Below, piece after piece: positions 10,363 through 61,390 of a stretch of DNA of 64,000 nucleotides. Position numbers and translations under genes: made by a program. Where the stretch lies: IMG/VR virus record IMGVR_UViG_3300009550_000008, one strand, 5' to 3'. The notes under the pieces are model-generated. The model had not been told where the DNA came from and did no database searches. It saw only the letters and a list, made by a program, of their open reading frames with translations. The DNA is from a virus. Each line of letters begins with the position of its first letter. The first letter of the stretch is position 1.

Positions 10363-11692
10363 AGAGTTTACACGGAAGTGTATTCCTTTTCTAAGGCCTG
10401 AGTATTTCACAGATACATCTGAAAGAACAATCTATGAATTTACATATGATTACTTTCAGAAGTATACTAAACCACCCACAATAGAAGCACTTCTCATAAA
10501 TCTTGAGAACAGCACTTCCCTTAATGAGAAGACTCTCAAGGACACAAAATCTATTGTAAACGGTTTCGGTAGTGAAGAATCCCCACAGGAATGGCTGGTC
10601 GATGAGACAGAGCAGTGGTGCAAAGATAGAGCAATCTATATTGCAGTAATGGATTCAATCGAAGTGATCGATAAGAAGTCACAACGATCTACTGGTGAGA
10701 TACCAGAGCTCTTAAAGGATGCACTCTCCGTGTCCTTTGATACACATATAGGACATGATGTATTAGAAGACGCGGACGATAGATTTGAATTCTATCATAC
10801 GGAAGAAGAGAAGATTCCATTTGATCTAGAATACTTCAACAAAATCACAAAGGGTGGATTACCCAATAAGACACTGAACATTTGTCTTGCAGGCACAGGT
10901 GTTGGTAAGTCATTGTTCATGTGTCATATGGGTTCTGCAGCTTTGATGATGGGTAAGAATGTATTGTATATCACACTAGAAATGAGTGAAGAAAGAATTG
11001 CAGAGAGAATCGATGCAAACACTTTGAACATTCCTATGAAAGAACTTCCTGATATATCTAAGAAGATGTATGATAAGAAGATCGAGAAACTCAAGAACAA
11101 AACAAAAGGTAAACTAATTGTAAAAGAGTATCCAACTGCAGCTGCACATGTCGGACATTTCAGACATCTATTGCAAGAGTTAGATATCAAGAAAGACTTC
11201 AAACCCGATATCATCTTTATCGATTATCTAAACATATGTTCATCACATAGAATCAGGCCTGGTTCAGGTGCAAACTCTTACACTTTGGTCAAGAGTATTG
11301 CAGAAGAACTTAGAGGACTTGCAGTCGAATATGATGTACCTATTATGTCTGCAACTCAGACTACAAGATCAGGATACGGTTCGACAGATATTGGACTTGA
11401 AGATACATCAGAATCCTTTGGATTACCAGCGACAGCTGATATGATGTTTGCATTAATCACATCTGATGAACTCGAAGAACTAGATCAGTTGGTTGTAAAA
11501 CAGTTGAAGAACAGATACAATGACCCAACTATATTCAAGAGATTTGTTATCGGTGTAGATAGATCAAGAATGAAACTATATGATTGTGAACAAGAAGCAC
11601 AAGAAGAACTCTTAGACTCAGGGGATGACTATGATGATAGTGTTCCAGTCGCCGACAGAGGAAGAGACAGATATTCGGACTTTAAGATATGA
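10313..11692 (+). CDS. 41: Replicative DNA helicase gp41
   Basis: [38 protein letters not shown]. Confidence 0.97.
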
Positions 11693-11832
11693 TAAAAAAG
11701 AAAAATATACAAAACAGAAGACAAAGAGCCCTAGATACTTTAATGAAAGTAAAGGAACCTAATGATCGTCAAAAGAAGGAGATTGCAATTCTGCAACAGC
11801 ATCTAAAGCTGCAAAACACTATTGACTCATAA
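11689..11832 (+). CDS. Small basic hypothetical protein (47 aa)
   Basis: Open frame coupled to the gp41 stop. Confidence 0.4.
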   Translation: MIKKKNIQNRRQRALDTLMKVKEPNDRQKKEIAILQQHLKLQNTIDS

Positions 11833-11855
11833 GGTATCATGGGTTATAATGGTAG

Positions 11856-12047
11856 ATGGTACAAAAAATGGTTGGGAAAACATTGAAATCTGATGAAGTA
11901 ATTGAGAGTATTACCTATAAAATACAACTCAAAAAAGACCTTAGACAGGCCAAATCAAAGGGTGATCTAAGAAAGGCTGATCTTATCCAACTAAAAATAA
12001 ATCAAATAGAAGAAAAACTTAAGTCGTCACCACTCTCCAAAACCTAA
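11856..12047 (+). CDS. Hypothetical protein
   Basis: ORF downstream of a TTGACT..TATAAT promoter. Confidence 0.55.
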   Translation: MVQKMVGKTLKSDEVIESITYKIQLKKDLRQAKSKGDLRKADLIQLKINQIEEKLKSSPLSKT

Positions 12048-12083
12048 ATAGTTGGGTATAACTTTTTTTAGGAGAACATTTAC

Positions 12084-12536
12084 ATGGCATGGGCAGACGA
12101 TATAATTTTATTAAATCTTAGAATTGCTAGACAGCAAAGATATGTCGACTACTTAGAGGGTGCTAACTCTAATGTTTTTGGGCCTAGAGGTGCAAATGCA
12201 GACCCAATGAATCCAGCACATACAAACGGATGTGACCCTGATGATTCAACTGCAGCTTCTCATAGATGGACAGGAACAGGTGGTGCAAACGCATACTTTG
12301 CTTGGTGGAGATCACAATTTTCATCCGCGGATGAGAACACAGCTGGTATAGAAGGTGCAGTATATGATGCATGGAAACACTGGAACGACACACTTTCACA
12401 GGACATTGCAAATGAGACAGGATATGCAGACACACTTGCAGGGCATAAGACAACTATTACCAATCTCACAACCAAGAGAGACCTTTTACAAGCAAATATC
12501 GACAACGGTGTTGAGCAGAAAACTGCACCCGAATAA
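12084..12536 (+). CDS. Hypothetical late/virion protein
   Basis: SD AGGAG; CCTAAATA late-like box at 12043-12050. Confidence 0.6.
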   Translation: MAWADDIILLNLRIARQQRYVDYLEGANSNVFGPRGANADPMNPAHTNGCDPDDSTAASHRWTGTGGANAYFAWWRSQFSSADENTAGIEGAVYDAWKHWNDTLSQDIANETGYADTLAGHKTTITNLTTKRDLLQANIDNGVEQKTAPE

Positions 12537-12588
12537 TAAAAAAGCATAAATAGTAGTATTACACAGGATTATGTGATATACTACTATT

Positions 12589-13794
12589 ATGGGTGCAAAG
12601 AACTTACATTTAGAACATTTAGAAGACGAGATCATCAATCAGGGTATTGATGGTGGTCGTGGTGCAATTAACTTTCTTCAAGGTCTAAGAGACATGTTGA
12701 AAGGTAATGCAAAGTCAGGGGTCAAGATGACCGTTAAATGGGACGGAGCTCCAGCGATATGGGCAGGGCCTCATCCCGAGACAGGACAATTCTTTGTTGC
12801 AAAGAAATCCCTCTTTACCAAAGCACAACTTCACTACACCTCAGAACAACAAATCAAAGATGCACCTGAACTCTCAGGTGATCTACAAACCAAATTCCTA
12901 GAAGCATTCAAACACCTTTCAAAGTTAAACTTTAGTAAGATATTACAGGGTGACTTGATGTTTACATCAGGTGATAAGAAGATGTCTACCATTGATGGTG
13001 AGTCATTCATAACATTCGGGCCAAACACAATTACATATGCAGTTCAAACATCGAGTGAACTGGGTAAACAAATAGCTGGTGCAAAATTAGGAATCGTATT
13101 CCATACCACATATACAGGTGCAACAATAGAAGATTTGGGTGCATCATTCGGTGCAGACATATCCAAACTAGGACATAGTTCTGATGTATGGGTAGATGAT
13201 GCAGAGTATAGAGATGTCAGTGGTAAAGGTTCGATGACAGCAAAAGAAACTCTCTCGTTAACTCAGGAGTTATCTAAAGCTGGTAAAGCATTCCACGGTA
13301 TCAAGAAGAAAGACTTAGAGAAGTTCAGAGAATTACAAACTGCAATTGCAAAGAAGGGTGCTGGGGCAACTTACAAGACCTATTGCAATTCACTTATCCG
13401 ACAAGGTAAATTTAAACCCACATATGATGGGTACATGAAACACTTTGAGAACTACTGGAGAGATAAAGTAGTTGGCAAAGTAAAACAAGAAAAGACAAAA
13501 CAAATTAAGAGAGACATTGGTGAACAACTATACAATGAAATGAGATCGATCAAGAAGTTTTTAACAAACCTTACACTATTCATGGGACACTTAGTTGTTG
13601 CAAAACAAATGATTATTGTTGTACTAAATAGAGTAAAGAGTATAGGAACATTTAAGAAGACTGCAAATGGTTTCGAGGCAGTAAACCCCGAAGGATATGT
13701 TGCAATCGATAGAAAAGGTGGTGCAGTCAAACTCGTAGATAGAATGGAGTTTGCATTTAATAACTTTACTGCACAAAAGGCATGGGACAAATGA
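12589..13794 (+). CDS. Conserved T4-like protein (DUF6267-like) with ligase/capping-type nucleotidyltransferase motifs
   Basis: KNLHLEHLED; TVKWDG (motif I KxDG), QGDLMF, PEGYVA (EGxV), VKLVDR. Confidence 0.65.
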   Translation: MGAKNLHLEHLEDEIINQGIDGGRGAINFLQGLRDMLKGNAKSGVKMTVKWDGAPAIWAGPHPETGQFFVAKKSLFTKAQLHYTSEQQIKDAPELSGDLQTKFLEAFKHLSKLNFSKILQGDLMFTSGDKKMSTIDGESFITFGPNTITYAVQTSSELGKQIAGAKLGIVFHTTYTGATIEDLGASFGADISKLGHSSDVWVDDAEYRDVSGKGSMTAKETLSLTQELSKAGKAFHGIKKKDLEKFRELQTAIAKKGAGATYKTYCNSLIRQGKFKPTYDGYMKHFENYWRDKVVGKVKQEKTKQIKRDIGEQLYNEMRSIKKFLTNLTLFMGHLVVAKQMIIVVLNRVKSIGTFKKTANGFEAVNPEGYVAIDRKGGAVKLVDRMEFAFNNFTAQKAWDK

Positions 13795-15071
13795 AGACAT
13801 TTAACAGATTCTTATCAGAGGCAAAAGAGAAAAGTTGTACATTTACTTTCGGTAGATTCAACCCGCCTACTACAGGTCATGAGTTACTCGTTAAGAAACT
13901 TATGAAGGTAGGTTCAGGAACAGATGTATTATTGTTCTCATCACACTCAAATGATAAAAGAAAGAATCCACTAAATCACAGAGATAAAGTTAAGTATCTC
14001 AAAAAGTTCTTTGGTAAAATTGTTGTTAATGCAAATGTTAAAACAGTATTTGAGATTGCAAACTATTTACAAGAACAGAAGTATGTAAATGTAAACATGG
14101 TTGTAGGTTCAGACAGAGTAAAAGAATTTGAAATGTTATTAACCAAATACAACGGAGTTAAAGCAAGACACGGATACTACAAGTTTAAGAATATAAACAT
14201 CATATCAGCTGGAGAAAGAGACCCCGATGCAGATGATGTTTCAGGGATGTCTGCAAGTAAGATGAGACAATTTGCAGAGGATGGAGATTTTGATTCATTC
14301 AAACAAGGTGTACCATCTAAAGGTAGAAGTGTTGCAAAGAAATTATACGATGATATCCGTAAAGGAATGGGTATCAATGAGGGTAATCTTCCTGAATACA
14401 TGATGGAAGATTTAATTACAGAAGGTGTTTATGACCCAGGCGTCTTCAAAGCAGTATTCCTTATGGGTGGGCCTGGTTCAGGTAAATCAACAGTTGTAGA
14501 TCAGTTGGCTTTAAAAGCACTAGGTCTTAAGATGGTGAATACTGATAAGGCATTCGAGGTTGGTCTTAAGAAAGCTGGAATGACTCTAGACCTTAGAGGT
14601 GCAGACTTTGATAAGGTTGACCCGATTCGTGCAAAGGCAAAGAAGATTACTGGTAAGAACATGGATGCATATATCTCAGGTAGACTAGGAATGATCTTTG
14701 ACACCACAGCTGCAAACAAATCTAAGATCGTTAGTTACAAGAAGATGTTAGATAAACTTGGTTACGAGTATAAAATGGTATTCGTTACTACATCCCTTGC
14801 AAATGCACAACATAGAAATAGTATGAGAGCAAGAAAACTACCATTCGATATCGTACAAAAAGACTGGGAAGCTGCAATGAAAAATGCAGATGAATTTAAG
14901 AAATTATTTGGGAAAGACTTCATATCAATCACTAATGATGATGACTTCAATACATTAAAGAAGAAAGCGAGTCAACTATACAAAGCTATGTTAACTTGGA
15001 CATCGAAGTTCCCATCAAACAAGTTTGCTCTTAAGTGGAGAGAACGCATGTTATTAAAGAAACGGGGATAA
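13791..15071 (+). CDS. HIGH-family cytidylyl/adenylyltransferase fused to a P-loop kinase
   Basis: FGRFNPPTTGH, VVGSDR, SASKMR; second domain MGGPGSGKS, IFDTT. Confidence 0.85.
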   Translation: MKTFNRFLSEAKEKSCTFTFGRFNPPTTGHELLVKKLMKVGSGTDVLLFSSHSNDKRKNPLNHRDKVKYLKKFFGKIVVNANVKTVFEIANYLQEQKYVNVNMVVGSDRVKEFEMLLTKYNGVKARHGYYKFKNINIISAGERDPDADDVSGMSASKMRQFAEDGDFDSFKQGVPSKGRSVAKKLYDDIRKGMGINEGNLPEYMMEDLITEGVYDPGVFKAVFLMGGPGSGKSTVVDQLALKALGLKMVNTDKAFEVGLKKAGMTLDLRGADFDKVDPIRAKAKKITGKNMDAYISGRLGMIFDTTAANKSKIVSYKKMLDKLGYEYKMVFVTTSLANAQHRNSMRARKLPFDIVQKDWEAAMKNADEFKKLFGKDFISITNDDDFNTLKKKASQLYKAMLTWTSKFPSNKFALKWRERMLLKKRG

Positions 15072-15079
15072 ATAATACT

Positions 15080-16312
15080 ATGTCAGCAAAGAAATACAGA
15101 GATTTTTTAAAGGAAGCAAACCTCGATAAATTCGATGAGGGTAAACTTGTATCTGATTGGTCATCTATACTCAAACTTATAACAGATAAGATTCAATCTA
15201 AACTAGGTAAAGAATACAAGAAGAATCCTGAAAGGGGTATTGCAATGATTAACACCATAGGTTCTATGGTTGGTGCAAAAGTTACTGATAAGAAACAACA
15301 GAAGGGTAGATTATTCCTTAAGTTTGGTGACCCTATAGAAGAAACAATCGAAGAGAATAAGGCTGCAAAACTTCTAAAGAAAGTTAAAGGTCTATCGAAA
15401 CAACAAGTACAAATGTTGTCTCAGTTACCAACACCAGTGTTAACATCGATGATTAACCAGTTGAGTGTTTTAGTTGCTGGGGACATACAAGAAGACGCTG
15501 CAGTAGACGCAGCTAATCTCAAGGCAAAACAAACCGAAGAGATGGAAAGACTCAAAGAGAAACAAGCTGGTGAGATGGAAGCTCTTAAAGATAGACATAC
15601 AAGACAAATGGATGCAATCAATCTACAGAAAGAGAAAGAAGCACAGAACAAAGCAATCGAGGCAGAAAGGGAATCTGCAAGAAAAGCTGCAACCAACGAA
15701 GAAGTTTTATATGAGAATGAAAAAGGTCTCAAGAACAAAGCAGAGAAATCAGGAATGCCTCTTGGTATATTGAAACAGGTATACAACAGAGGACTCGCTG
15801 CATACAAAACAGGACACAGGCCTGGTGCAACTGCACCTCAGTGGGCAATGGCAAGAGTTAATAGTTTTGTAACCAAGTCAAAAGGAACTTGGGGTGGTGC
15901 AGATAAAGACTTAGCTGCAAAGGTTCGAGGTAAGTCTGAGGGTTATAACGAAGACAAAGAAGAACAAGATAAAGATGTATCGAAGAATAAGGGTACACAA
16001 CCTAAGAAGTATTACAAAGGTTTAGACAAAGAAACTAAACAGAAAAGGGATGCACACTTCAAACAAGGTAAGACAGGGCCTGCTCCTGGCGATGAGGATG
16101 AAGATGGTAAACCTACAAAGACTAAGAAATCCACTCACACCAAAAAATTTCAAAAGATGTACGGTGAGAAACTAGACAAAAACTCAGACGCAGGAGATTA
16201 CATTGATGATTTCAGGAAGTCGGATGCACCACAGTTTAAGGGTAAATCCGATAAGAAAATTAGAAAGATGGCAATCGCAGCATTCTTGGACAAGAAAGAT
16301 GGCAGGAAATAA
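15080..16312 (+). CDS. Modular Lys/Glu-rich putative internal head protein (contains a DUF5824-like module)
   Basis: GILKQVYNRGLAAY..HRPGATAPQWAMARVNSF and DFRKSDAPQFKGKS modules; late box GATAAATA 15067-15074. Confidence 0.6.
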   Translation: MSAKKYRDFLKEANLDKFDEGKLVSDWSSILKLITDKIQSKLGKEYKKNPERGIAMINTIGSMVGAKVTDKKQQKGRLFLKFGDPIEETIEENKAAKLLKKVKGLSKQQVQMLSQLPTPVLTSMINQLSVLVAGDIQEDAAVDAANLKAKQTEEMERLKEKQAGEMEALKDRHTRQMDAINLQKEKEAQNKAIEAERESARKAATNEEVLYENEKGLKNKAEKSGMPLGILKQVYNRGLAAYKTGHRPGATAPQWAMARVNSFVTKSKGTWGGADKDLAAKVRGKSEGYNEDKEEQDKDVSKNKGTQPKKYYKGLDKETKQKRDAHFKQGKTGPAPGDEDEDGKPTKTKKSTHTKKFQKMYGEKLDKNSDAGDYIDDFRKSDAPQFKGKSDKKIRKMAIAAFLDKKDGRK

Positions 16313-16526
16313 ACACGACAACGGAGTCCTCGAACAGGGGACAGATGAGATAAGAATATCTTATCAAGAGGATACGCCTGGTCAATCAGTTGATGAGTAC
16401 ATCAAAGAGAAAGAAAAGTCATTCCACGAAACAAAAGAGACAATCAAGAAAAGATTCAAAGATGTATTCGGTAATCCATTGAAGGACTATCCATACAACG
16501 AGGAGTTCGAAGTTGAAGACCTTTAG
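16299..16526 (+). CDS. Hypothetical protein
   Basis: EQGTDE..YQEDTPGQ motif; operon continuity. Confidence 0.55.
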   Translation: MAGNKHDNGVLEQGTDEIRISYQEDTPGQSVDEYIKEKEKSFHETKETIKKRFKDVFGNPLKDYPYNEEFEVEDL

Positions 16527-19061: not shown

Positions 19062-20510
19062 ATGAACTTATTCCAACAGATCAAAGAAAAAAAAATACTA
19101 GACAAAGATGGTAAAGTCGATGCACTAGGGCCTTATGGTAAATCTAAACTTACTGGTCAGGAAGTTGCAAACTATTTCAAGAAAAACAAAGTAAAAGACC
19201 CTGAGATCAAAAAAGCAGTCGAGGTTGCATTAGACCTTAGTGGTGCAATGGATGTCGCTGGAAAAGAAATCCAAAAGTTCTTTGGAAGAAAGATAAGAAA
19301 CTCTAAAGAAGTAAAAAGAGCTCTTAAGTATGCAAACGAATCATTTGAAATGAATCAATTGGTTTGTATGTTGCATGAAGATGTATTGAATCTTACAGAA
19401 AAGAACCTTATGCCTGATATCCAAAAGATAGTTGACACTAAAGGTGCAGCTAAAGTTGGTGGTGTAATGTTAGATATGTTCACTGCATCTATGATTTCAA
19501 AAGTTTACGACAAAGTAAACGATCAGAACAAGAAGAAGATGGAAAAAGCAAAGATCGAAGTTCTTGTTAAACTTGCACATAAAGTTATGGGTATGAAAGA
19601 GGAACAAGTTGCAGAGATCATAGAAGGTAAGACCCTCAAACAATTAAAGAAAATTTATAAGAAAGATGTTAAAAACTATAACAACAATAGAGACATCTCT
19701 CAAGGTGCTGCAATGGCATTTGCATACTGGGCAATCAAAAATGGGGACATAAAAACAGATGACCCTGATGAATTTGACCAGTGGTTAGATGATAATCTAT
19801 CAGAATGGATAGCTGCAGACGGTACTAGAAGAAGAGTACACGAAAAAGACAAGAGAAAATCAAAGGTAACTGTTAAAGAAGGTGGTAAATCTCAAGCACA
19901 ACAAGCTGCAATTGCAATCTCTAAGAAAGAGAAAGCAGGGAAGCCTGGATATGATAAAGAAGGTAAGTCACTTAAGAAAGAATCAGTTATGGATTCCTAC
20001 AGAAAAATGTGGGAAGATGCAGTAGAAGAAGATATTGACGAAGCATTCTCCAAGAAACCCGCAAAAGGTAGAGATATTGCAAAGAAGATGATGAAGAGTA
20101 AGACAATGAAAGGTTTTGCTAACAAAGTTAAGAAAATGAAAACAGTTACCGCTGTTCAGTTAGATAAAATGTTGCCAGATTATGTCTCAGGTGGAGATAT
20201 TGGGGCAATGTTTGAAGATGCAGTAGAAGAAGAAACTATTGTAGAGAAGAAAGAAATGGATTCAAAAGTAATCGAAAAGATTGCAAAGTTAACCGATCAA
20301 AACGATCATAATAAAGCTGTAATGGACTTAGCTCGTTACATGAGAGAGATGAAAGTCGTTAAGATGATGGAACACATGATTGCAATGCATAAAATCAATG
20401 GTTCTATGTCTAGTGATATGATAAACATAAGAAAAGAAATGTTAGACTTATGTTTGAAGAAAGCTAAGAAGTTATATGATAACTTTGATGACATATACAA
20501 GGCATTCTAA
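19062..20510 (+). CDS. Large modular Lys/Glu-rich putative internal head protein
   Basis: Series of short modules (AQQAAIAISKK; LTDQNDHN) separated by acidic linkers. Confidence 0.6.
   Translation: MNLFQQIKEKKILDKDGKVDALGPYGKSKLTGQEVANYFKKNKVKDPEIKKAVEVALDLSGAMDVAGKEIQKFFGRKIRNSKEVKRALKYANESFEMNQLVCMLHEDVLNLTEKNLMPDIQKIVDTKGAAKVGGVMLDMFTASMISKVYDKVNDQNKKKMEKAKIEVLVKLAHKVMGMKEEQVAEIIEGKTLKQLKKIYKKDVKNYNNNRDISQGAAMAFAYWAIKNGDIKTDDPDEFDQWLDDNLSEWIAADGTRRRVHEKDKRKSKVTVKEGGKSQAQQAAIAISKKEKAGKPGYDKEGKSLKKESVMDSYRKMWEDAVEEDIDEAFSKKPAKGRDIAKKMMKSKTMKGFANKVKKMKTVTAVQLDKMLPDYVSGGDIGAMFEDAVEEETIVEKKEMDSKVIEKIAKLTDQNDHNKAVMDLARYMREMKVVKMMEHMIAMHKINGSMSSDMINIRKEMLDLCLKKAKKLYDNFDDIYKAF
20013..20233 (+). 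repeat. 20-nt direct repeat GAAGATGCAGTAGAAGAAGA flanking an in-frame 67-codon module
   Basis: Copies at 20013-20032 and 20214-20233, 201 nt apart. Confidence 0.85.
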
Positions 20511-26392: not shown

Positions 26393-28695
26393 ATCAGAAC
26401 GGTAATGGTGGAATCAAAGTTGTCAAGTCAGACGGAAGTAAAGTATCAATCGATCTAGATAAGATTCACAGAATGGTAGAGAAAGCCTGTAGGAATATTA
26501 CAGGTGTATCAGAATCGATGATTGAAATGAACAGTGGTCTTCAATTCTATGAAGGTATATCTACACGGGAGATTCAATCTATATTGGTTAAATCTGCACA
26601 TGACTTGATTGATGTTACTAATCCTAATTACCAGTTTGTAGCTGCAAGACTATTACTATTTGCAATTCAGAAACAAGTATTCAATACCAAGTGGAAGGAC
26701 AGTGAAATCTATCCACCACTTGATGATATCATCAGAAGGAACATTGACGCTGGTGTATATGACTCTCAGATTCTAGAACAGTATGATGAGGATGAGATCA
26801 ATCGATGTAACAGTTTTATTAAACATTCAAGAGATTTAAACTTTACCTATGCTGGACTACAACAGATTGTAGACAAGTATTTGGTACAAGATAGATCAAG
26901 TGGTGAGGTATTTGAGACACCACAATTTATGTACATGCTTATTGCAATGACATTATTTCAACATTACGACAAAGAGGTCAGACTAGACTATGTCAAACGA
27001 TACTATGATGCCATATCAAATTTCAAAATTAACATACCGACACCTATCATGGCAGGGGTCAGAACTCCACTCAGACAATTTGCAAGCTGTGTTCTCGTTG
27101 ACTCCGATGATTCACTACAGAGTATATTCTCCAGTGACCATGCGATTGGAAAGTATGTTGCACAACGAGCTGGGATTGGAATTAACGCTGGGAGAATTAG
27201 AGGAATTGGCTCTAAAATTAGGGGAGGTGAAGTCCAACATACAGGAGTTATCCCATTCCTTAAGAAGTTTGAAAGCACAGTTAGGTGTTGCACACAAAAT
27301 GGAGTCAGAGGAGGTTCAGCAACCGTCCACTTCCCAATCTGGCACCAAGAAATCGAAGACATCCTTGTCCTCAAAAACAACAAAGGAACCGAAGACAACA
27401 GAGTTCGTAAGTTGGACTACTCAATACAACTTTCCCAAATCTTTTATCAAAGATTTTTGGAAAACGGAGAAATAACTTTATTCTCTCCACATGATGTGCC
27501 TGGCTTGTATGAAGCATTTGGTACAGATGAGTTCGATGAATTGTATACAAAGTATGAGAATGCATATTCAATACCTAAGACAAAGATAGGTGCAAGAGAA
27601 CTCTTTACAGACTTATTGAAAGAACGAGCAGAGACTGGCCGTATCTACATTATGAATATAGATCATAGTAATACTCATAGTTCATTTAAAGACAAAGTGA
27701 ACATGAGTAATCTATGTCAAGAGATAACATTACCTACAGACCCAATCGATCATATCGATGGAGAGGGTGAGATTGCATTGTGTATACTATCTGCAGTCAA
27801 TGTAGGTATTGTTAAGGAAGAAGAAATGGAATCTCTTTGTGACCTAGCAGTGAGAGGACTTGAAGAACTGATAGATTTCCAAGAATATCCAGTAAAAGCT
27901 GCAGAACGATCAACCCTTGCAAGACGAAGTCTTGGTATTGGTTATATCGGACTGGCACATTTCCTTGCAAAAAACAAGGTAAAGTACGATGACCCTAAAG
28001 CTTTAGAACTGGTACACGATCTTACAGAGAGGTTTCAATTCTATCTTCTTAAATCGTCAAACAAAATTGCACAAGAGAAAAGTGCTTGTGCATGGTTTGA
28101 TAGAACAAAGTATGCAGATGGGATACTTCCCATTGACACATACAAAGATTCCGTTGACGAACTTGTTAAACCAAAATACAAGATGGACTGGGAAGGACTT
28201 AGAAAGGATATCCTTGCACATGGACTAAGACATAGTACATTGACTGCACAGATGCCGTCTGAGTCGTCTAGCGTGGTCTCTAATGCAACAAATGGTATTG
28301 AACCACCAAGAGATCATCTAAGTGTTAAGAAGAGTAAGAAAGGAACCCTTAAACAGGTTGTACCACAATACTCTTTATTGAAGAACTCATACACCTTACT
28401 ATGGGATATGCCTGACAATACAGGTTATATTAACATAGTTGCAGTGATGCAGAAGTTTTTCGATCAAGCAATTTCAGGTAATTGGTCATACAATCCTGAA
28501 ATGTATGATAACAATGAAGTACCAGTTTCGGTAATGGCAAAAGACTTATTGACTACATATAAATACGGGTGGAAAACATCTTATTACCACAACACAATGG
28601 ATGGTAAAGTAGAAGATGTTATGGTTGAAGAACAACCCGTGATGGATGACCCTTTCGAGGGTAGTGAGGAAGACTGCGATGCCTGTGCGATTTGA
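26389..28695 (+). CDS. nrdA: Ribonucleotide reductase class Ia alpha subunit
   Basis: ATP cone; RQFASCVL; SNLCQEI; QMPSESSS; C-terminal CDACAI. Confidence 0.98.
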   Translation: MNQNGNGGIKVVKSDGSKVSIDLDKIHRMVEKACRNITGVSESMIEMNSGLQFYEGISTREIQSILVKSAHDLIDVTNPNYQFVAARLLLFAIQKQVFNTKWKDSEIYPPLDDIIRRNIDAGVYDSQILEQYDEDEINRCNSFIKHSRDLNFTYAGLQQIVDKYLVQDRSSGEVFETPQFMYMLIAMTLFQHYDKEVRLDYVKRYYDAISNFKINIPTPIMAGVRTPLRQFASCVLVDSDDSLQSIFSSDHAIGKYVAQRAGIGINAGRIRGIGSKIRGGEVQHTGVIPFLKKFESTVRCCTQNGVRGGSATVHFPIWHQEIEDILVLKNNKGTEDNRVRKLDYSIQLSQIFYQRFLENGEITLFSPHDVPGLYEAFGTDEFDELYTKYENAYSIPKTKIGARELFTDLLKERAETGRIYIMNIDHSNTHSSFKDKVNMSNLCQEITLPTDPIDHIDGEGEIALCILSAVNVGIVKEEEMESLCDLAVRGLEELIDFQEYPVKAAERSTLARRSLGIGYIGLAHFLAKNKVKYDDPKALELVHDLTERFQFYLLKSSNKIAQEKSACAWFDRTKYADGILPIDTYKDSVDELVKPKYKMDWEGLRKDILAHGLRHSTLTAQMPSESSSVVSNATNGIEPPRDHLSVKKSKKGTLKQVVPQYSLLKNSYTLLWDMPDNTGYINIVAVMQKFFDQAISGNWSYNPEMYDNNEVPVSVMAKDLLTTYKYGWKTSYYHNTMDGKVEDVMVEEQPVMDDPFEGSEEDCDACAI

Positions 28696-32223: not shown

Positions 32224-32256
32224 GCCTTGACAATGGGCCGGGCTTTGTACTATAAT
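32224..32256 (+). promoter_or_regulatory. Early sigma70-type promoter (GGCCTTGACAATG class)
   Basis: TTGACA 32227-32232, 18 nt, TATAAT 32251-32256. Confidence 0.8.
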
Positions 32257-33479: not shown

Positions 33480-33862
33480 TGCAACAGATGTTAATCACAT
33501 TAATACTTGTTCTTGGTGTAGGTTCTTATTACCTATACAATCAGAATGTTACTCTCAAAGAGAATAACACCAAATTAGAATATGCAATTGCTGAACAACA
33601 GTCAGCGATGGAAGCACTAAGAGAATCATATGAATTACAAGGTAAATCTTTGTTGAATATGAGTAGAAGGAATGCAGAGATAGAACAGGAGAAAGCTGAA
33701 TATCTTGCAATCTTTAGTAGACACAATTTAGATTTACTTGCATTGAAGAAGCCTGGCATGATAGAACTCAGGTTTAACAATGGAAGTGAAGATGTAATGG
33801 AGACAATGGAAGATGAAACAGAAGACCTTTATAAGCTTACTGTCCCTGACACTACTGATTAG
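33479..33862 (+). CDS. Putative inner-membrane spanin (Rz-like)
   Basis: N-terminal TM, coiled coil, LALKKPGMIE; overlaps a lipoprotein gene. Confidence 0.7.
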   Translation: MQQMLITLILVLGVGSYYLYNQNVTLKENNTKLEYAIAEQQSAMEALRESYELQGKSLLNMSRRNAEIEQEKAEYLAIFSRHNLDLLALKKPGMIELRFNNGSEDVMETMEDETEDLYKLTVPDTTD

Positions 33863-35746: not shown

Positions 35747-36351
35747 TGCCAAAGCAAAGAGTACAAGTAATACACAATGATACTGATGCACCAAAGAAAG
35801 CTGGTGATGGTAACTTTTTGATTGTTCATGATGAGGCAGTCAATCCAGCCATGTGTGCAGAGATCATAGAAAGGTTTGAAGAGATACCACTTGTCGAAGT
35901 AGAAGCTCACGGTGGTAATAAGTTCTTACCAGTAGATGAGTCATATCATGGTGTAACACATAGATATGAATCTCAAGGTAGAATACACGGTAACATATTT
36001 CCAGGCCATCTCTTTAATGACATATTTGATATGGTAGGATTTGCATTACCAAAGGGTATGGAGTTTGGTGAAGTTAATTATGTACAGATTATAAAGTATC
36101 CCGAAGGTTCATTCTTTCCATGGCATAAAGATGTCGCAGATGATCGTGATACGGGAACAGCAATATTAATGTTAAATGACAACTTTGTAGGTGGTCAATT
36201 AAATGTAGCTGGTCATAGGTTCTTGACCAAGCAGGGAACTATCATAGGATTTAACAATCCTACTAAAGTTTTCCATAATGTAGAACCAATATATAAGGGG
36301 AGTCGATACTGTTTAGCAATATGGTTCGGTCTCGCATTAGAAGAAGAATAA
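35746..36351 (+). CDS. Prolyl-4-hydroxylase-like 2OG-Fe(II) oxygenase
   Basis: WHKD, LNDNFVGG, HNVEPI..GSRYCL. Confidence 0.85.
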   Translation: MPKQRVQVIHNDTDAPKKAGDGNFLIVHDEAVNPAMCAEIIERFEEIPLVEVEAHGGNKFLPVDESYHGVTHRYESQGRIHGNIFPGHLFNDIFDMVGFALPKGMEFGEVNYVQIIKYPEGSFFPWHKDVADDRDTGTAILMLNDNFVGGQLNVAGHRFLTKQGTIIGFNNPTKVFHNVEPIYKGSRYCLAIWFGLALEEE

Positions 36352-36588: not shown

Positions 36589-37189
36589 AATCGGATTTGT
36601 ACATGTACCACGAACAGGTGGTACGAGTGTAGAACACGCCCTCATGAAAAAGTATCCTCAAGTGGTACAACTTCATGCAAATAAGTTCTATGATAGACCA
36701 ATTATAAAAGTTATATCAGTACATACACTGAAACTGCCAGGCGGTGAGTTGGAATATCAAAAGAAACATGCAACACACGATGAGTTATGGGAAGTAGCAA
36801 AGAACTATAAGTTCTATGCAACTGTAAGACATCCCTTGAGACGATTAGAGTCGATGTATAGACTACTGACATTTTCTCAAACAGATGGAGTCCCTTGGAC
36901 AACATTAGAGTTTAATGAATGGGTATATAATCTAGTAGAGAATTATACCATGATGGAAGAACAGGACATATTAGATAGTTCTATGTTCCATCTAACACAA
37001 TCTGCAATGATAGGTAATGCAGAATGGCATAAGACAGAGGAAGGTACTATATGGGAAGCACTCGATATAGAACCAAGACATGATTATAAATTGTCTGACC
37101 AACCTATCGATTGCAATTGGAGTAGTGAATCACTGCAAATGATAAGGAATTATTATGCAGAAGATTTTGAAAGATTTAGTTATAGATAA
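36569..37189 (+). CDS. Sulfotransferase family protein
   Basis: FVHVPRTGGTS 5'-PAPS motif; VRHPLRRLES; YAEDFERFSY. Confidence 0.8.
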   Translation: MLFHQSKIGFVHVPRTGGTSVEHALMKKYPQVVQLHANKFYDRPIIKVISVHTLKLPGGELEYQKKHATHDELWEVAKNYKFYATVRHPLRRLESMYRLLTFSQTDGVPWTTLEFNEWVYNLVENYTMMEEQDILDSSMFHLTQSAMIGNAEWHKTEEGTIWEALDIEPRHDYKLSDQPIDCNWSSESLQMIRNYYAEDFERFSYR

Positions 37190-41408: not shown

Positions 41409-41611
41409 TTCTATTATTTATTCTGTATATAATAGGAGATATTGAGAAAAATAATGCAGAATAGGGTTAGAAAAGATTATGTGCGAAAAGTGCCTTTTGG
41501 TGCTTGTGTTCGGGGAGGCAAATCACATATTTATTTTGGAGTCAAGAGCCCCGAGAGGGTCTCGGAGGCATGCTGAGTACGGCTCAGAGAGCGGGGCAGT
41601 CCTTCGGCCAG

Positions 41612-41645
41612 GGCCTTGACAATGCCTCAGCACTTATAGTATAAT
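41612..41645 (+). promoter_or_regulatory. Early promoter (GGCCTTGACAATG class)
   Basis: TTGACA 41616-41621; TATAAT 41640-41645. Confidence 0.8.
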
Positions 41646-47050: not shown

Positions 47051-48463
47051 ATGCGTTCGTTTTCAGAAGTTATCCGTGAGGAAACTGATAACAAGAAACC
47101 CTACCGCCTAGTGGTGATAGCAGAAAGACGCATGGTGAAAAAGTCTAAGAAGAACTCAGATAAACCAGTTGTAAAAAAACCAAGTTCAACATCAAGTAAA
47201 CTCTACGGTCTTGCAAAGGAAGCGGGTTGTGATGTTTACAGTGTCAGAGTTAATGGTGCATACATCGAGAGAGCAGACGATGGTGTAATCACAATTCACA
47301 ACTCAGATGATGAGAAAGGATTTCATTTAGATGGTGACACAATCATAATGATTCGTGGAGCTGTTACTGCAAAAGATTCTTATCTAGATTTAATCAGTCA
47401 AATAGAACGATACGGTTTCCCAGTGGTAAACTCTAGGGAGTGTATCGAAGTATGTGCAGATAAGTTTAGAACTTATCTAAGACTTCAAGAGATTGGTATG
47501 AACCAACCTCGAACAGTATTGATTCCAAACGAAGAACCCGAGACAGTCGACATGGCTGCAAAGAGATTAGACGATGAGTTCCCTATGGTGCTTAAAACTC
47601 TACAGGGTGCAAAGGGTGTTGGAGTTCTATTGGTGGAGACTGAGAGATCACTACAATCAACGGTGAGTCTTGTATACAAGATTGACCCAACTTGTGATAT
47701 CCTATTACAAGAATACATCGACATGGAATATGATGTTCGTGTCATGATAAACAACAGAAGAGTTATCGGTGCAATGAAGAGGAAAAAAATCATTGATGAC
47801 TTTCGATCAAATATATCTCAAGGTGCAGAAGCCGAAGAGATAGAACTTACAGAACTAGAGAAAGAAACATGTTTGATAGCTGCAAAGGCTGTCAATGGTC
47901 AGTGGGTAGGTGTAGACTTTATTCCAGCAGAGGATAGAGAGAAGGAAGCACCTTACATTCTAGAGGTAAATCATTCGCCAGGAACTCAAGGTATCAGTGA
48001 TGCATTGGGTGAAGAGGTATGTGAAACAATTATAGACGATTACTTTGACAGAGATATATGGAGAAAGAAGGCAACTGAATGTGGCGTTCTAGAGACCATA
48101 GAGGTCGATGGTGAGACGATGACAGCGAAGTTGGACACTGGGAACAGTGCAAAGGCTTGTGCCTTACACGCCGACTCCTACGAGGTCAAAGGAAAGGTTG
48201 TTCACTTTGAAAGGAATGGTAAAAAATATAAGAAACCTTTACTTAGAATGTTGACTTTAATTAAACCCGCAGAAGAAAGACCAGTAGTCAAGTGTGAATT
48301 AAACTTCTTAAATACTATATATGAACAAGAAGTTAGTTTAGATCAGAGAGGGAATATCCCGTTTCTGGCGAATAGAGATTTTATGAATAGAGCTAACCTG
48401 ATGATAAATCCATCAAGGAAGTTCTTATTGACTAATAAACATGATGACACAGAAGACAACTAA
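47051..48463 (+). CDS. RimK-family ATP-grasp ligase fused to a retropepsin-like (RimB-type) protease domain
   Basis: DKFRTY, GAKGVGV, LLQEYI, DFRSNISQG, GVD, LEVNHSPG; C-terminal AKLDTGN. Confidence 0.85.
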   Translation: MRSFSEVIREETDNKKPYRLVVIAERRMVKKSKKNSDKPVVKKPSSTSSKLYGLAKEAGCDVYSVRVNGAYIERADDGVITIHNSDDEKGFHLDGDTIIMIRGAVTAKDSYLDLISQIERYGFPVVNSRECIEVCADKFRTYLRLQEIGMNQPRTVLIPNEEPETVDMAAKRLDDEFPMVLKTLQGAKGVGVLLVETERSLQSTVSLVYKIDPTCDILLQEYIDMEYDVRVMINNRRVIGAMKRKKIIDDFRSNISQGAEAEEIELTELEKETCLIAAKAVNGQWVGVDFIPAEDREKEAPYILEVNHSPGTQGISDALGEEVCETIIDDYFDRDIWRKKATECGVLETIEVDGETMTAKLDTGNSAKACALHADSYEVKGKVVHFERNGKKYKKPLLRMLTLIKPAEERPVVKCELNFLNTIYEQEVSLDQRGNIPFLANRDFMNRANLMINPSRKFLLTNKHDDTEDN

Positions 48464-56538: not shown

Positions 56539-56541
56539 AAA

Positions 56542-57089: not shown

Positions 57090-57098
57090 AATGGTAAC

Positions 57099-57644
57099 AT
57101 GAATTTATTTTATTTACATGAAGACCCCGAAGTATCCTCAACACTGCATTGTGATAAACATGTAGTAAAGATGATTATCGAGTATGCTCAAATGTTATCT
57201 ACTGCACATAGGATGTTAGATGGAACACAATACACCGATGCATCCAGTGGTCGTAGAATTCAAAGGTGGAAACTAGAAGATTATACTATGGAAGATATGT
57301 TATACAAAGCTTCTCATATCAATCATCCATCTACTCGTTGGGTTCGTGAGAATGCAATTCAATATCAGTATGCATACGATATGTTTACTAACTTATGTGA
57401 TGAGTACACATATAGATATGGTAAGACACACTTGACTGATTCTAAACTTAGATACTCATTAGATATATTACCTAAGAATATTAAACTAGGTGAATGGTCA
57501 GAACCACCTCAGTGTATGCCTGAGGATGTTAAGGTTCCGAATGACAGTCTAAAAGCATACCATAAATACTATGCAGTCTACAAGAAAGATTTTGCAAAAT
57601 GGACAGAGAGACCTGTCCCAACTTTTATGGACACATATGCCTAG
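57099..57644 (+). CDS. Pyrimidine-dimer DNA glycosylase-like protein
   Basis: MNLFYL..HCDKHVVKMIIEYAQMLSTAH..HINHPS. Confidence 0.75.
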   Translation: MNLFYLHEDPEVSSTLHCDKHVVKMIIEYAQMLSTAHRMLDGTQYTDASSGRRIQRWKLEDYTMEDMLYKASHINHPSTRWVRENAIQYQYAYDMFTNLCDEYTYRYGKTHLTDSKLRYSLDILPKNIKLGEWSEPPQCMPEDVKVPNDSLKAYHKYYAVYKKDFAKWTERPVPTFMDTYA

Positions 57645-57951
57645 ATACGATTTTTATAATGAAGAAACTGGTGAGTTGATTGAATACACAATGTCATGGA
57701 GAGACCTTGACGATTTCAAACTAAACAATCCCCATCTTAAACAACAAGTTTCTGCACCACAAATAGTGGGTGGTACTGGTGATCGAGTTAAAACTGATGA
57801 TGGTTTTAAGGAAGTATTATCTAAAGTAGGTGATGCACATCCAGGCTCGGTTGTTCATGAACGACATGGTAGTAAAGATATTAAGAGAGAGAAGTCTGTA
57901 CAAACCATTAAGAAACATATGGACATCCAGTCCAAAGGAAAGAAACTATGA
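57637..57951 (+). CDS. FmdB-like small protein
   Basis: MPRYDF..GFKEVLSKV..HPGS. Confidence 0.6.
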   Translation: MPRYDFYNEETGELIEYTMSWRDLDDFKLNNPHLKQQVSAPQIVGGTGDRVKTDDGFKEVLSKVGDAHPGSVVHERHGSKDIKREKSVQTIKKHMDIQSKGKKL

Positions 57952-58628: not shown

Positions 58629-58876
58629 TGATAACAAGAAAGGAATTCAGTGAACAAGTCGAGAGGTTACTTTCAAAAGGTAAAGGTACACCCGATGTAA
58701 TGTCAGCAATAATAAAGGTATGTGAGGTCAATAAGGTTGAACCCGAAAGTGCAAAGAGATTAATCTCTACACCACTTAAGGAAAAGCTGCAAGCTGAAGC
58801 AGAACAACTCAACATGATTAATAGACATACACGAAGTCAGTCAACCTTGACTGGTTTCTTTACGGAGAAAAAATAA
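58625..58876 (+). CDS. 33: Late promoter transcription coactivator gp33
   Basis: FSEQVE..LISTPLKEKLQAEA..LN; TLTGFF clamp-like peptide; upstream of gp59. Confidence 0.8.
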   Translation: MMITRKEFSEQVERLLSKGKGTPDVMSAIIKVCEVNKVEPESAKRLISTPLKEKLQAEAEQLNMINRHTRSQSTLTGFFTEKK

Positions 58877-59148
58877 TGGAAAAAGGTGATGTCGTAACAG
58901 TAGTTACAATCAGCGGTGAGTATGTTGGTATACTCGATTCGTTTGAAGATGCAACTGTGGTTCTTAATAAACCACGAATGGTTGTTCAATCAGAGAAAGG
59001 TATGGGATTTGCACATGGTGTTGCAGTAACAGGTGAAGAGAATCCTGAGTCAGTAACATTCCTCAATGTGGTTTATGTTATCCCAACGAATAAAGCTGTA
59101 GCAAAAGCACATACAGAAGCAACAACTAGCATTCAGTTAGTTAAGTAA
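58876..59148 (+). CDS. Sm-like hypothetical protein
   Basis: VVTISGEYVG..LNKPR. Confidence 0.55.
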   Translation: MEKGDVVTVVTISGEYVGILDSFEDATVVLNKPRMVVQSEKGMGFAHGVAVTGEENPESVTFLNVVYVIPTNKAVAKAHTEATTSIQLVK

Positions 59149-59741
59149 TGACGAGTCGTGAAGGATATGATGCATACACTTTATATCTTGGTATAAAGTT
59201 ACACTTCTATTCTACCGACTACAATTTCATTAAGTATAACGGTAAAGTCAAAGCAGATATAAACTCATTCGTTAAACGAAAAGATAAGTATCACTTTGGT
59301 AAGTTATACAAAAAGTATAAACAGAACCTACAGGATTTCTACATTGCAAATCTATCTGTTTATGATCTATGGGCTGGTGATCTTCTAGAGAATGAATGTG
59401 AGAAGAGATACATGGAGTGGAAGAAAAGACAACAGAAACTTTCCTACATGTTTGAGACAGAAGTATCAGACCAAATTAGAAAATACAAGATTAATACTTT
59501 ACTTAAGGTAAACAAGGGACAACACCCTAGACTATTAAAAGCATACTTAGGTAAAGAGATAAGTTTGGAAACACTTTGTATTATGGATGAGATAATCGGA
59601 TTCAGTTCAGACTGGGAAAAACTGATACAGGAAAAGATCGTTTATCCCGAAGTCCATAACAAGATAAACAAATACAAAGCTTTCTTATCTTACCCACAAC
59701 AGGAATACAAAACCAAATTAATTGATCTATGCTCCACATAG
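59148..59741 (+). CDS. 59: Helicase loader gp59
   Basis: YLGIKLHF..YNFIKYNGK..KRKDKYHF; ISLETL. Confidence 0.9.
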   Translation: MTSREGYDAYTLYLGIKLHFYSTDYNFIKYNGKVKADINSFVKRKDKYHFGKLYKKYKQNLQDFYIANLSVYDLWAGDLLENECEKRYMEWKKRQQKLSYMFETEVSDQIRKYKINTLLKVNKGQHPRLLKAYLGKEISLETLCIMDEIIGFSSDWEKLIQEKIVYPEVHNKINKYKAFLSYPQQEYKTKLIDLCST

Positions 59742-60457
59742 TAGGTAACGGCCCAAGTCGTAAACAATATGATCTAAACTCTTTCGAAGAGTGGTGGGGA
59801 TGTAATGGTGTATACAGAGATCATACTCCTGATATACTATTCGTCCACGACATTCCCGTTCAACACCAAGCTGTTGTAGATGGATGTTTAGAGAGAGGAA
59901 AGGTTGCGGTCGGAGACTGGAATCATATGGAGATAGATTTGTGGGATGGATTGAAGATGGGATATCCGAATGCAATACACAATCGAACCGAGGATGATAC
60001 TCATTTTGTGGTTCAAGGGGAAGGACACGAAGTATATTTCACTAGCTATAATATACCTCTGGGCTGCAACATTATTATGTATAATTATGAGAAGCTCAAG
60101 AACACCTTTTGTGGTATCAGTGCATTAGGATATGCAGCTTACAATGGATACAAAGAGATTACTTTAGTAGGGTTTGATGCATTAGACCCTGAGTTAGATT
60201 CAGTTGATAATGTTTATCAAGGAACTGAGTTCTATCGCACTAAATACAATGCAAATGATACAGTTAACTACATTCAAAAGATGCAGTTCGTATCGTTGCT
60301 TGAAGACCCCTTGTTTAATGATATAAAGGTTTATTTCAAAAACCCTATTGACGATAACAAGGAAGTCATATATAATGAATTATGTTACTATGAAAATAGT
60401 AAATATAAGTGGTCGTTAGGTGTTAGTTCACTTCATGACTTTAATAAGATGCTATAA
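59729..60457 (+). CDS. Hypothetical protein (GT29/Maf-like Rossmann fold)
   Basis: IVGNGPSR..GCN..PD; ITLVGFD. Confidence 0.6.
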   Translation: MLHIVGNGPSRKQYDLNSFEEWWGCNGVYRDHTPDILFVHDIPVQHQAVVDGCLERGKVAVGDWNHMEIDLWDGLKMGYPNAIHNRTEDDTHFVVQGEGHEVYFTSYNIPLGCNIIMYNYEKLKNTFCGISALGYAAYNGYKEITLVGFDALDPELDSVDNVYQGTEFYRTKYNANDTVNYIQKMQFVSLLEDPLFNDIKVYFKNPIDDNKEVIYNELCYYENSKYKWSLGVSSLHDFNKML

Positions 60458-60490
60458 AATGCAATACGATGTTTAATACAAGGAGATACT

Positions 60491-61390
60491 ATGTCAACAT
60501 CATTAGATAAACTACGCGCAGCAATGGAATCTGCGTCTCCAACTCAAGGAGAAAAAAAGTCCTATTCCGATGACAGATTTTGGAAACCCGAACTCGATAA
60601 GAGTGGTAATGGGTTTGCAATAATCCGTTTCCTACCAACCCCCGAAGGTGAAGAAATGCCATGGGTCTCATATTGGGATCACGGCTTCCAAGGGCCAGGC
60701 GGATGGTATATTGAGAAGTCTTTAACGACTCTTAATAAACAAGACCCTGTGTCCGAGTACAATACTCAGTTATGGAACACTGGAATCGAAGCAAACAAAG
60801 AGATTGCAAGGAAACAGAAGCGTAGACTTCATTATGTTTCTAATGTCTATGTTGTTTCAGACCCTAAGAATCCTGATAACGAAGGTAAAGTATTCCTTTA
60901 TAAGTACGGTAAAAAAATCTTCGAACAGTTGAAAGAAGCAATTAGTCCAGCATTTGAGGACGAAGCTGCAATCAATCCTTTTGACTTAAGAGGAGAAGGT
61001 GCAAACTTCAAAATCAAAATCAGAAAAGTTGATGGTTACTGGAACTACGACAAGTCTGAGTTTGATAAAGCTGCACCACTTTTTGATGACGAAAATCAGT
61101 TGAATGATATATATACTTCTGTTCATTCGCTATCAGAAATTATATCACCTGATGAGTTCAAGTCTTATGACGAACTCAAAACTAAACTCGATAGAGTATT
61201 AGGACTATCAGGTGGAGTGAGTAATTCTACAGCAGAGTCAGTTGCAGAAGACCAAGAAGAAGTGCCTTGGGCAAATGTAAACACTGCCTCCGTTGCAGAT
61301 GAACCCGTAATTGCATCTGCTGATGCATCAGTTGGTGAAACTGGTGACGATGCGATGGATTACTTCAAGAAATTAGCTTCGGACAGTTAA
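60491..61390 (+). CDS. 32: Single-stranded DNA binding protein gp32
   Basis: DDRFWK, GNGFAIIRFLP, HGFQGPGGWYIE, YGKKIF, GANFKIK, NYDKSEF. Confidence 0.97.
   Translation: MSTSLDKLRAAMESASPTQGEKKSYSDDRFWKPELDKSGNGFAIIRFLPTPEGEEMPWVSYWDHGFQGPGGWYIEKSLTTLNKQDPVSEYNTQLWNTGIEANKEIARKQKRRLHYVSNVYVVSDPKNPDNEGKVFLYKYGKKIFEQLKEAISPAFEDEAAINPFDLRGEGANFKIKIRKVDGYWNYDKSEFDKAAPLFDDENQLNDIYTSVHSLSEIISPDEFKSYDELKTKLDRVLGLSGGVSNSTAESVAEDQEEVPWANVNTASVADEPVIASADASVGETGDDAMDYFKKLASDS

Follow-up and report, generated by a model that had tools for sequence, protein, structure and literature searches.

The predicted modification operon and its published relatives

We analysed a 64,000-nt stretch of a T4-like marine phage (IMG/VR record IMGVR_UViG_3300009550_000008; hereafter the window, which covers part of the genome). 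It carries a C5-cytosine DNA methyltransferase (MTase) gene joined to the gene of a TET-type dioxygenase, and its CCWGG sites survive only where they overlap a GpC dinucleotide. The operon genes lie on the + strand, beginning with those for HSP20 (301-711; Pfam PF00011, 1.5e-17) and an AhpC/TSA peroxiredoxin (778-1299; PF00578, 6.8e-22). They are followed by the C5-MTase of 417 amino acids (aa) (1350..2603; PF00145, 8.7e-51, profile positions 2-324) and a TET/JBP-type 2-oxoglutarate (2OG)/Fe(II) dioxygenase of 332 aa (2582..3580; PF12851, 3.7e-13, above the curated cut-off), whose gene begins before the MTase gene ends. Two P-loop kinase genes come next, K1, a nucleotide kinase of 178 aa (3581..4117; PF18751 Ploopntkinase3, 1.4e-4, below the curated cut-off), and its paralogue K2 of 191 aa (4114..4689; weak P-loop Pfam hits). 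A lysozyme and then a T4-type DNA polymerase are encoded downstream of the operon; the window has neither a glycosyltransferase nor any recognisable tailoring enzyme further downstream.

The catalytic core of the C5-MTase is complete, with motif I (FAGGGG), SPPC and ENV all present. Among sequenced phages, its best match is the enzyme of Methylophilales (OM43) phage Melnitz EXVC044M (MZ577097; 54% identity), and the window TET is 55% identical to Melnitz gene 6. K1 is kept beside TET in relatives of the window phage and in Melnitz (55% identity), and is a candidate 5-hydroxymethylcytosine (5hmC)-DNA kinase. Homologues of K2 occur only in the nearest relatives (L002, 96%; L003, 50%), and other relatives have at most K1. 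Most operon-bearing relatives encode one kinase, and four of them (L010, L014, L015 and L064) encode none.

Judged by its gene layout and the published description, the operon is a member of the known C5-MTase/TET (5mYOX) clade I/A family, whose members co-occur with HSP, redoxin, and P-loop kinase or glycosyltransferase genes (Burke et al., 2021; PMC8256090). The window shares with that clade the gene order HSP20, AhpC-type redoxin, C5-MTase, TET/JBP and P-loop kinase, and differs from it in having two kinase paralogues. Two enzymes of clade I, C5-MT43 and C5-MT88, were reported to methylate cytosine in GC[C/T/G] and to leave GCA unmethylated (PMC8256090). That study characterised the enzymes in E. 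coli, and the composition of phage genomes lay outside its scope.

The closest solved homologue of the window C5-MTase is CmoX of Synechococcus phage S-B43 (8YF3; E = 8e-70, 41% identity), a C5-carboxymethyltransferase whose GC specificity was established by nanopore sequencing and in vitro experiments (PMC12783734). The SPPC catalytic motif (S95-P96-P97-C98) is invariant in the alignment of the two enzymes. However, CmoX has GRMV, with Arg350 binding the carboxymethyl group, where the window enzyme and its relatives have GLMV with Leu, and CmoX is paired with CmoA/CmoY whereas the window enzyme is paired with TET. The Leu at the Arg350 position led us to reject a CmoX-type carboxymethyltransferase; together with the TET partner, it predicts an ordinary S-adenosylmethionine (SAM) methyltransferase feeding TET. 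S-B43 was also considered as a third GpC-modifying test case and was uninformative, since in its first 50 kb CCWGG is neither avoided nor biased in its flanks (9 of 69 sites flanked).

Surviving sites and the loss of unflanked ones

The initial annotation had described all 15 CCWGG sites of the window as GCCWGG and/or CCWGGC, and an exhaustive regex count over the window returns the same 15 sites at identical coordinates, every one of them flanked in this way. The 5' flank is G in 11 sites, the 3' flank is C in 8, and both hold in 4; a C on the 3' side places a G before the site on the opposite strand. A preceding G alone is found at 11258..11262 (G-CCTGG-T; codons AGG CCT GGT, Arg-Pro-Gly), 14472..14476 (G-CCTGG-T; GGG CCT GGT), 15821..15825 (G-CCTGG-T; AGG CCT GGT), 16377..16381 (G-CCTGG-T), 19944..19948 (G-CCTGG-A; AAG CCT GGA), 41608..41612 (G-CCAGG-G) and 47978..47982 (G-CCAGG-A; TCG CCA GGA). 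A following C alone is found at 14436..14440 (C-CCAGG-C; CCA GGC, Pro-Gly), 16085..16089 (T-CCTGG-C; CCT GGC), 36001..36005 (T-CCAGG-C; CCA GGC) and 57841..57845 (T-CCAGG-C), and both flanks occur at 27499..27503 (G-CCTGG-C; GTG CCT GGC), 33752..33756 (G-CCTGG-C), 36737..36741 (G-CCAGG-C; CTG CCA GGC) and 60695..60699 (G-CCAGG-C; GGG CCA GGC). The outer flanks of these sites are diverse.

Other C-initial motifs follow the same pattern. As also stated in the initial annotation, CCAGA/TCTGG occurs as GCCAGA or with a GC adjacent: the 16 sites comprise 13 GCCAGA (+ strand at 20175, 52147, 55868 and 63369; - strand at 62361, 55079, 48364, 43479, 42650, 42439, 37647, 27338 and 17343), 2 CCAGAGC and 1 GCCCAGA, while CCAGT/ACTGG is common (117 sites, 7 of them G-preceded). 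The G-preceded fraction is thus 81% for CCAGA, 6% for CCAGT and 2% for CCAGC, compared with a window background of 9.2% for any CC. All five CTGAAG sites (20772, 23411, 33138, 51556 and 58794) are G-flanked on at least one strand, four as GCTGAAG and the fifth as CTGAAGC, which is G-preceded on the opposite strand. CCTGCA is G-preceded at 4 of its 6 window sites, and the sole CCGG of the window (32238..32241) reads G-CCGG.

The pattern extends into codon choice. All CCWGG sites inside called + strand genes read in frame as Pro-Gly, and since Pro-Gly is written CCN-GGN it always creates CCWGG or CCGG, so that recoding cannot remove the site. In the 12 Pro-Gly pairs of the window, the Pro codon is always CCA or CCT, and every pair has a G-ending preceding codon or a GGC glycine codon, which produces the GpC overlap. 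GGC makes up 5% of Gly codons yet is present in 7 of the 12 pairs, and the preceding codons are the rare G-ending ones. Two further codon-pair biases noticed in the initial annotation are borne out by the counts: of 95 Pro codons that stand before Glu or Asp, 92 are CCC or CCT (CCC 33, CCT 59, CCA 3), although CCA makes up 44% of Pro codons overall, and the Gly codon before Pro is GGC (10) or GGG (10) and never GGT or GGA, which together make up 86% of Gly codons. GGWCC is absent from the window, as the initial annotation had also reported.

We compared the observed counts with a codon-preserving synonymous shuffle (400 replicates; 93 called open reading frames (ORFs), 88% coding) and with a maximal-order Markov model, whose counts cover both strands; Fisher tests on sibling words served as a third test. 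Splitting the codon-aware counts by flank, as the initial annotation had proposed, supports the rule. In the shuffle, CCWGG is expected 33.4 +/- 4.4 times (replicate minimum 21) and observed 15 times; GC-flanked sites number 15 against 9.4 expected, and unflanked sites 0 against about 24. CCAGA behaves likewise (16 observed against 101 expected; GCCAGA 13 against 14.9, other CCAGA 3 against about 86), as does CTGAAG (5 against 37; GCTGAAG 4 against 7, other CTGAAG 1 against about 30). G-flanked forms at neutral frequency together with the elimination of the other forms are the signature expected of a shielded G-preceded cytosine. Chance or codon bias as the cause is ruled out by the 400 shuffles, the Markov model and the sibling-word Fisher tests.

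Motifs in which no C follows a G are almost completely lost. For eight such unshieldable motifs (GGWCC, ACGT, GATCC/GGATC, AGATCT, TGATCA, ACTAGT, AGTACT and GGTACC), the summed survivors are 4 against about 320 expected in the shuffle. Individual shuffle comparisons give GGWCC 0 against 36, CCGG 1 against 33, ACGT 0 against 119 and GATCC 1 against 84, and the Markov model gives ACGT 0 against 185, GATCC 1 against 61, GGACC 0 against 42, CCAGA 16 against 83, TGATCA 6 against 66 and CTGAAG 5 against 31. AGATCT, CGATCG, GTGCAC, ACTAGT, AGTACT and GGTACC are each absent across the window. At least 12 motifs have an observed/expected ratio of 0.15 or lower under both models, which amounts to restriction-site avoidance. 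The GATC-centred palindromic hexamers are all avoided (AGATCT 0, CGATCG 0, GGATCC 0, TGATCA 3); the depletion of GATC itself is mild (207 sites), and AGATCA exceeds its expectation (105 against 60).

In an unbiased scan of all C-initial 4-6-mers across 172 kb from phages with the operon, words G-preceded in at least 60% of cases are almost all derived from CCWGG, CCAGA or CCTGCA, the remaining ones being CCGG, CGAACG and CCCCCG. The identical scan finds nothing comparable in 124 kb of relatives without a methyltransferase.

Probable shielding context, comparison phages and the swappable slot

The surviving motifs also indicate which GpC contexts shield. CC- and CT-initial motifs probe GCC and GCT, and by their survivor pattern both contexts shield. 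GCG probably shields as well: CGACG survivors are G-preceded at 2 of 2 sites, and CGAACG at 7 of 11 in pooled relatives. In the 172 kb of operon-bearing phages, GTGCAC, which presents GCA on both strands, is absent against 63.6 expected; GAGCAC/GTGCTC, with GCA on one strand and GCT on the other, occurs 7 times against 24.5; and GAGCTC, with GCT on both strands, occurs 70 times against 30.3. CCTGCA is G-preceded at 19 of 22 sites in these phages, and in other xCTGC words the next base is A in 68-84% of cases. From these counts we infer a shielding context of GC[C/T/G] with GCA excluded, in agreement with the published clade I specificity. Protection by any GpC was rejected, since GTGCAC and H-CCTGCA are purged and TGCA behaves unlike the other contexts.

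The initial annotation had called the GC-centred palindromes TGCA and AGCT abundant. This stands for TGCA, which occurs 602 times against a codon-aware expectation of 351 (1.7x, z = +21), and not for AGCT, which occurs 154 times against 179 and is over-represented only in comparison with the Markov model and the relatives. The TGCA excess lies nearly all at xxT|GCA codon junctions (Ala codon GCA after T, 448 against 221 expected). It is accompanied by depletion of AGCA/TGCT (ratio 0.58), CGCA/TGCG (0.32) and GGCA/TGCC (0.77), and xAG|CAx junctions number 24 against 107 expected. The same shift is found in Melnitz and in relatives with an SPPY-type methyltransferase, and it is absent from pelagiphage HTVC008M and from relatives without a methyltransferase. 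Under a GC[C/T/G] target, AGCA, CGCA and GGCA would be modified on one strand only and TGCA alone on neither, so that TGCA abundance is no evidence of protection; that explanation was rejected because the excess is concentrated at xxT|GCA junctions, is mirrored by the AGCA/CGCA/GGCA loss and also occurs in the SPPY relatives. One possible reading is that selection against sites modifiable on one strand only drives the TGCA excess. Two observations fit this poorly, namely that AGCC/GGCT is depleted (0.49) and that the shift also occurs in the SPPY group. A GCY-only model with hemi-, both- and neither-strand classes fits worse than GC[C/T/G], and the AGCC/GGCT depletion fits neither. Relaxed AGCT/GGCC avoidance was also tried as an operon signature (2.4/kb against 0.7/kb in the window's clade) and abandoned because Melnitz has 0.87/kb.

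Melnitz provides a cultured comparison. Like the window phage it is a T4-like marine myophage with curli/FecR/cyclase genes, and its MTase, TET and kinase are 54-55% identical to those of the window. Unlike that of the window, its cassette follows the DNA polymerase gene, as in the clade II/B layout, and includes an additional gene of 427 aa; the DNA polymerases of the two phages are only 45% identical. In 114 kb of Melnitz, all 54 CCWGG sites are GC-flanked, CCTGCA is G-preceded at 19 of 21 sites, TGCA is high, and neither GGWCC nor GTGCAC occurs. Melnitz does not avoid CCAGA (374 occurrences), whereas the window does. The paper describing Melnitz lists a 'modification methylase' or "type II DNA methylase" only and does not mention TET or site avoidance (PMC9004378). 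HTVC008M has 28 GGWCC sites, and 11 of its 55 CCWGG sites are flanked; no MTase/TET cassette is found in the 50 kb examined.

We compared the window with 80 viral contigs retrieved by a DNA polymerase search. The interval that separates AhpC/HSP20 from a conserved gene of 109 aa, upstream of the lysozyme and DNA polymerase genes, is a hypervariable swap site (window 1299-4658; L028 7281-8729; L066 7087-8535; L071 1192-6383; L072 3228-4355). In group (a) the slot holds MTase and TET, then one kinase (two in the closest relative, L003) or none, with or without an unknown gene of 189, 331 or 414 aa. In group (b) it holds a single PF01555 methyltransferase of 463-506 aa with a TSPPY motif, plus a PLP enzyme in L055; its SPPY motif, typical of N4-cytosine enzymes, makes this methyltransferase a putative N4-cytosine (N4C-type) enzyme, and a structure search with it returned no solved relative. 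Group (c) has a DruA-like protein, a cytidylyltransferase-like protein, an unknown 446 aa protein and a TET-associated glycosyltransferase, and in group (d) the slot holds the DruA-like protein alone or is empty.

CCWGG is GC-flanked at 49 of 49 sites in group (a), 78 of 78 in group (b), 10 of 11 in group (c) and 11 of 53 in group (d) (21%, background). In group (b), CCAGA is also G-preceded at 8 of 8 sites and GGWCC is absent, whereas neither motif is avoided in group (d). Homologous sites can differ only at the flank, reading caatt-A-CCTGG-T-tttga without a methyltransferase and caatt-G-CCTGG-C-tttga in footprint phages. The operon-less relatives therefore failed as a clean negative control, since they either carry another methyltransferase in the slot or avoid no motif. 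Because the footprint-positive relatives lacking MTase/TET carry another cytosine-type methyltransferase in the slot, the footprint points to modification of G-preceded cytosines in general and not to TET chemistry specifically. One part of it is specific to MTase/TET phages: CCTGCA is G-preceded at 19 of 22 sites in the window lineage and 19 of 21 in Melnitz, compared with 5 of 48 in group (b), and GAGCAC depletion is likewise absent from the SPPY group.

The Pro-Gly pairs divide the phages in the same way. All 55 pairs in Melnitz and all 45 in the relatives with an SPPY enzyme have the GpC overlap; HTVC008M has it at 8 of 47 pairs, and the relatives that lack a methyltransferase at 11 of 50. 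Relative to the expectation from amino-acid frequencies, with homology uncontrolled, Pro-Gly occurs 12 times against 38 in the window, 55 against 93 in Melnitz, 45 against 91 in the SPPY group and 47 against 32 in HTVC008M. This deficit in the footprint phages suggests that restriction pressure reaches the protein sequence. In the DNA polymerase, Pro-Gly pairs are too few in every group to reveal loss at homologous positions.

A proposed two-part shield and its alternatives

Taken together, the counts, null models, gene content and comparative pattern are best explained, with a probability of about 0.72 in our estimate, by a cytosine modification limited to GC[C/T/G] that shields the surviving sites, while sites that cannot overlap it have been purged. 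After replication, the phage would modify the GpC cytosine in GCC, GCT and probably GCG, and not in GCA. The C5-MTase (1350-2603) would produce 5-methylcytosine (5mC), the adjacent TET would convert it to 5hmC, and the two P-loop kinases would probably phosphorylate the hydroxyl. Because the modification covers a fraction of the cytosines, the genome would be adapted in two ways. Host sites without a modifiable cytosine (GGWCC, ACGT, GGATC, AGATCT, TGATCA, ACTAGT, AGTACT and GGTACC) would be removed by synonymous change, and C-initial sites (CCWGG, CCAGA, CTGAAG, CCTGCA, CCGG and CGACG) would persist only with a preceding G on at least one strand. At Pro-Gly, the GpC would be created through the wobble position of either the codon before it (xxG) or the Gly codon (GGC).

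This model keeps the core of the initial annotation, which had proposed that host sites were purged except where a modified cytosine in GpC blocks cleavage: flanked sites occur at expectation and unflanked ones are gone. Its attribution to a C5-MTase/TET pair fits the genes present at 1350-3580, while the proposed target of any GpC gives way to GC[C/T/G], GCA being unprotected, and an exclusive link to TET does not hold. The predicted specificity (GCC, GCT, probably GCG, not GCA) equals that measured for C5-MT43 and C5-MT88. As in classical phage restriction-site avoidance, type II-like palindromes are scarce and sites covered by a phage methyltransferase are tolerated. In the classical case, however, the methyltransferase targets the site itself, whereas here the target is a context of two to three bases overlapping the edge of the site, often on one strand. 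Also unlike the classical case, the window genome purges what cannot overlap and recodes wobble bases beside sites that cannot be purged.

Phage C5-MTase/TET pathways act at GpC cytosines alone, and their discoverers have argued that marks this sparse are unlikely to protect broadly against restriction. The footprint in two independent lineages, one of them cultured (Melnitz on OM43), would provide evidence from natural genomes for the marks as shields, with the sparse mark made sufficient because the genome removes what the mark cannot cover. An enzyme specificity, GC[C/T/G] and not GCA, can be predicted here from sequence alone and agrees with published measurements in the same clade. The candidate host restriction repertoire would include CCWGG, GGWCC, CCGG, ACGT, GGATC, NGATCN palindromes, GTGCAC, CTGAAG, CCAGA and CCTGCA. 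C5-MTase/TET/kinase and N4C-type methyltransferase cassettes interchange at one slot, and Melnitz with its host offers a tractable system for direct experiments. A literature search found no published report of this footprint, which appears to be new, as do the anchoring of Pro-Gly by wobble bases and the exchange of cassettes.

Several points weigh against the two-part shield. The chemistry of the modification, its ability to block cleavage and the enzymes attributed to the host are all inferred from sequence, and because the window is a partial genome, another methyltransferase could be encoded elsewhere. The same CCWGG/CCAGA/GGWCC footprint appears in group (b) without MTase/TET, an outcome that the initial annotation had counted against its own claim; those relatives carry the SPPY PF01555 methyltransferase in the slot. 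The CCWGG/CCAGA pattern is thus not TET-specific and could partly be inherited. L063, L071 and L078 keep the flank rule (10/11) with no recognised methyltransferase in the DNA examined. Among the relatives, none was found that is under the same restriction pressure and lacks a cytosine methyltransferase; those without one avoid none of these motifs, and their hosts are probably different. Nor does protection hold everywhere: G-flanked CCGG has all but disappeared (1 site, against an expectation of 33 for total CCGG), GCAGCA/TGCTGC is depleted (6 against 55) despite its internal GCT, and AGCC/GGCT stands at 0.49 of expectation although it contains GCC or GCT.

The most serious rival, which we nevertheless regard as unlikely, is that the footprint is an inherited or shared trait produced by another GpC-directed cytosine methyltransferase, either the SPPY N4C-type or one outside the window. 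The C5-MTase/TET/kinase operon would then have replaced it later and would serve a different purpose, for example in packaging or the control of transcription. The SPPY-group counts speak for it, as do a 151 kb record of that group with no PF00145 match and the operon-bearing record G005, which has an extra PF01555 methyltransferase elsewhere; moreover, bioRxiv 2023.12.21.572611 expresses doubt that GpC-limited modification serves generally against restriction. On the other side, the window contains no ORF of at least 100 aa with a [DNS]PP[YFW] motif, and the extra G005 enzyme is absent from the syntenic window gap at 61393-61580. The CCTGCA bias and GAGCAC depletion are limited to MTase/TET lineages, and all five window CTGAAG sites are flanked. 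A flank rule at 15/15 needs ongoing selection and hence a currently active shield, which counts against an inherited footprint. Distinctly less probable is an origin in the host, whose solitary methyltransferase might modify GpC on phage DNA or whose restriction enzymes might intrinsically spare G-flanked sites. The footprint does follow the set of avoided motifs, which stands in for the host, no less closely than it follows the cassette type, and the Melnitz host encodes a type II DNA methylase (PMC9004378). But at least five unrelated motifs (CCWGG, CCAGA, CTGAAG, CCTGCA and CGACG) share a one-base rule, so that an intrinsic preference would have to recur in five separate enzymes. Furthermore, all footprint-positive phages with enough sequence carry a cytosine-modification cassette, HTVC008M and nine relatives without one are at 20-21% flanked, and the predicted specificity matches that of the phage enzymes of the clade.

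The least credible alternative, which has largely been refuted, is that codon usage or dinucleotide bias generates the pattern, or that GCCWGG serves as a phage signal. It could draw on the single Pro-Gly frame of the surviving CCWGG in called + strand genes and on the slight excess of GC-flanked CCWGG over the shuffle expectation (15 against 9.4). Yet chance is rejected under the codon-preserving shuffle as well as under the Markov model, and the codons that supply the flanks are rare ones (GGC, present in 7 of the 12 Pro-Gly pairs, and G-ending predecessors). The outer flanks are diverse, and the rule holds for asymmetric motifs in other frames.

Beyond the two-part shield itself, we tentatively consider a broader and rather doubtful reading, in which GpC hypermodification and coding co-evolved as a two-part anti-restriction system, with host targets unable to overlap a modifiable GpC purged, Pro-Gly anchored and depleted about threefold, and VGCA/TGCB selected against, driving the roughly twofold TGCA excess. 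If this co-evolution took place, hemi-modified sites would carry a cost or be sensed by a nuclease, and both the methyltransferase target and the host restriction repertoire would be readable from the sequence of an uncultured phage alone.

Additional observations concern the relatives. L063, L071 and L078 have very low AGCT and GGCC. An unknown protein of 444-446 aa is encoded in L063 and L078 and may be a new modification enzyme, and the TET-associated glycosyltransferase is found in L071 and L078. The extra methyltransferase of G005 (L082 963-1844; 293 aa, PF01555) lies between homologues of window genes, and L045 has a copy of it with 56% identity. In the SPPY group (L020, L028, L066 and others), CAGCT, CAGCC and CAGCG are 63-89% G-preceded (GCAGCB) and AGCT is depleted overall, which hints at a second, different shielding context.

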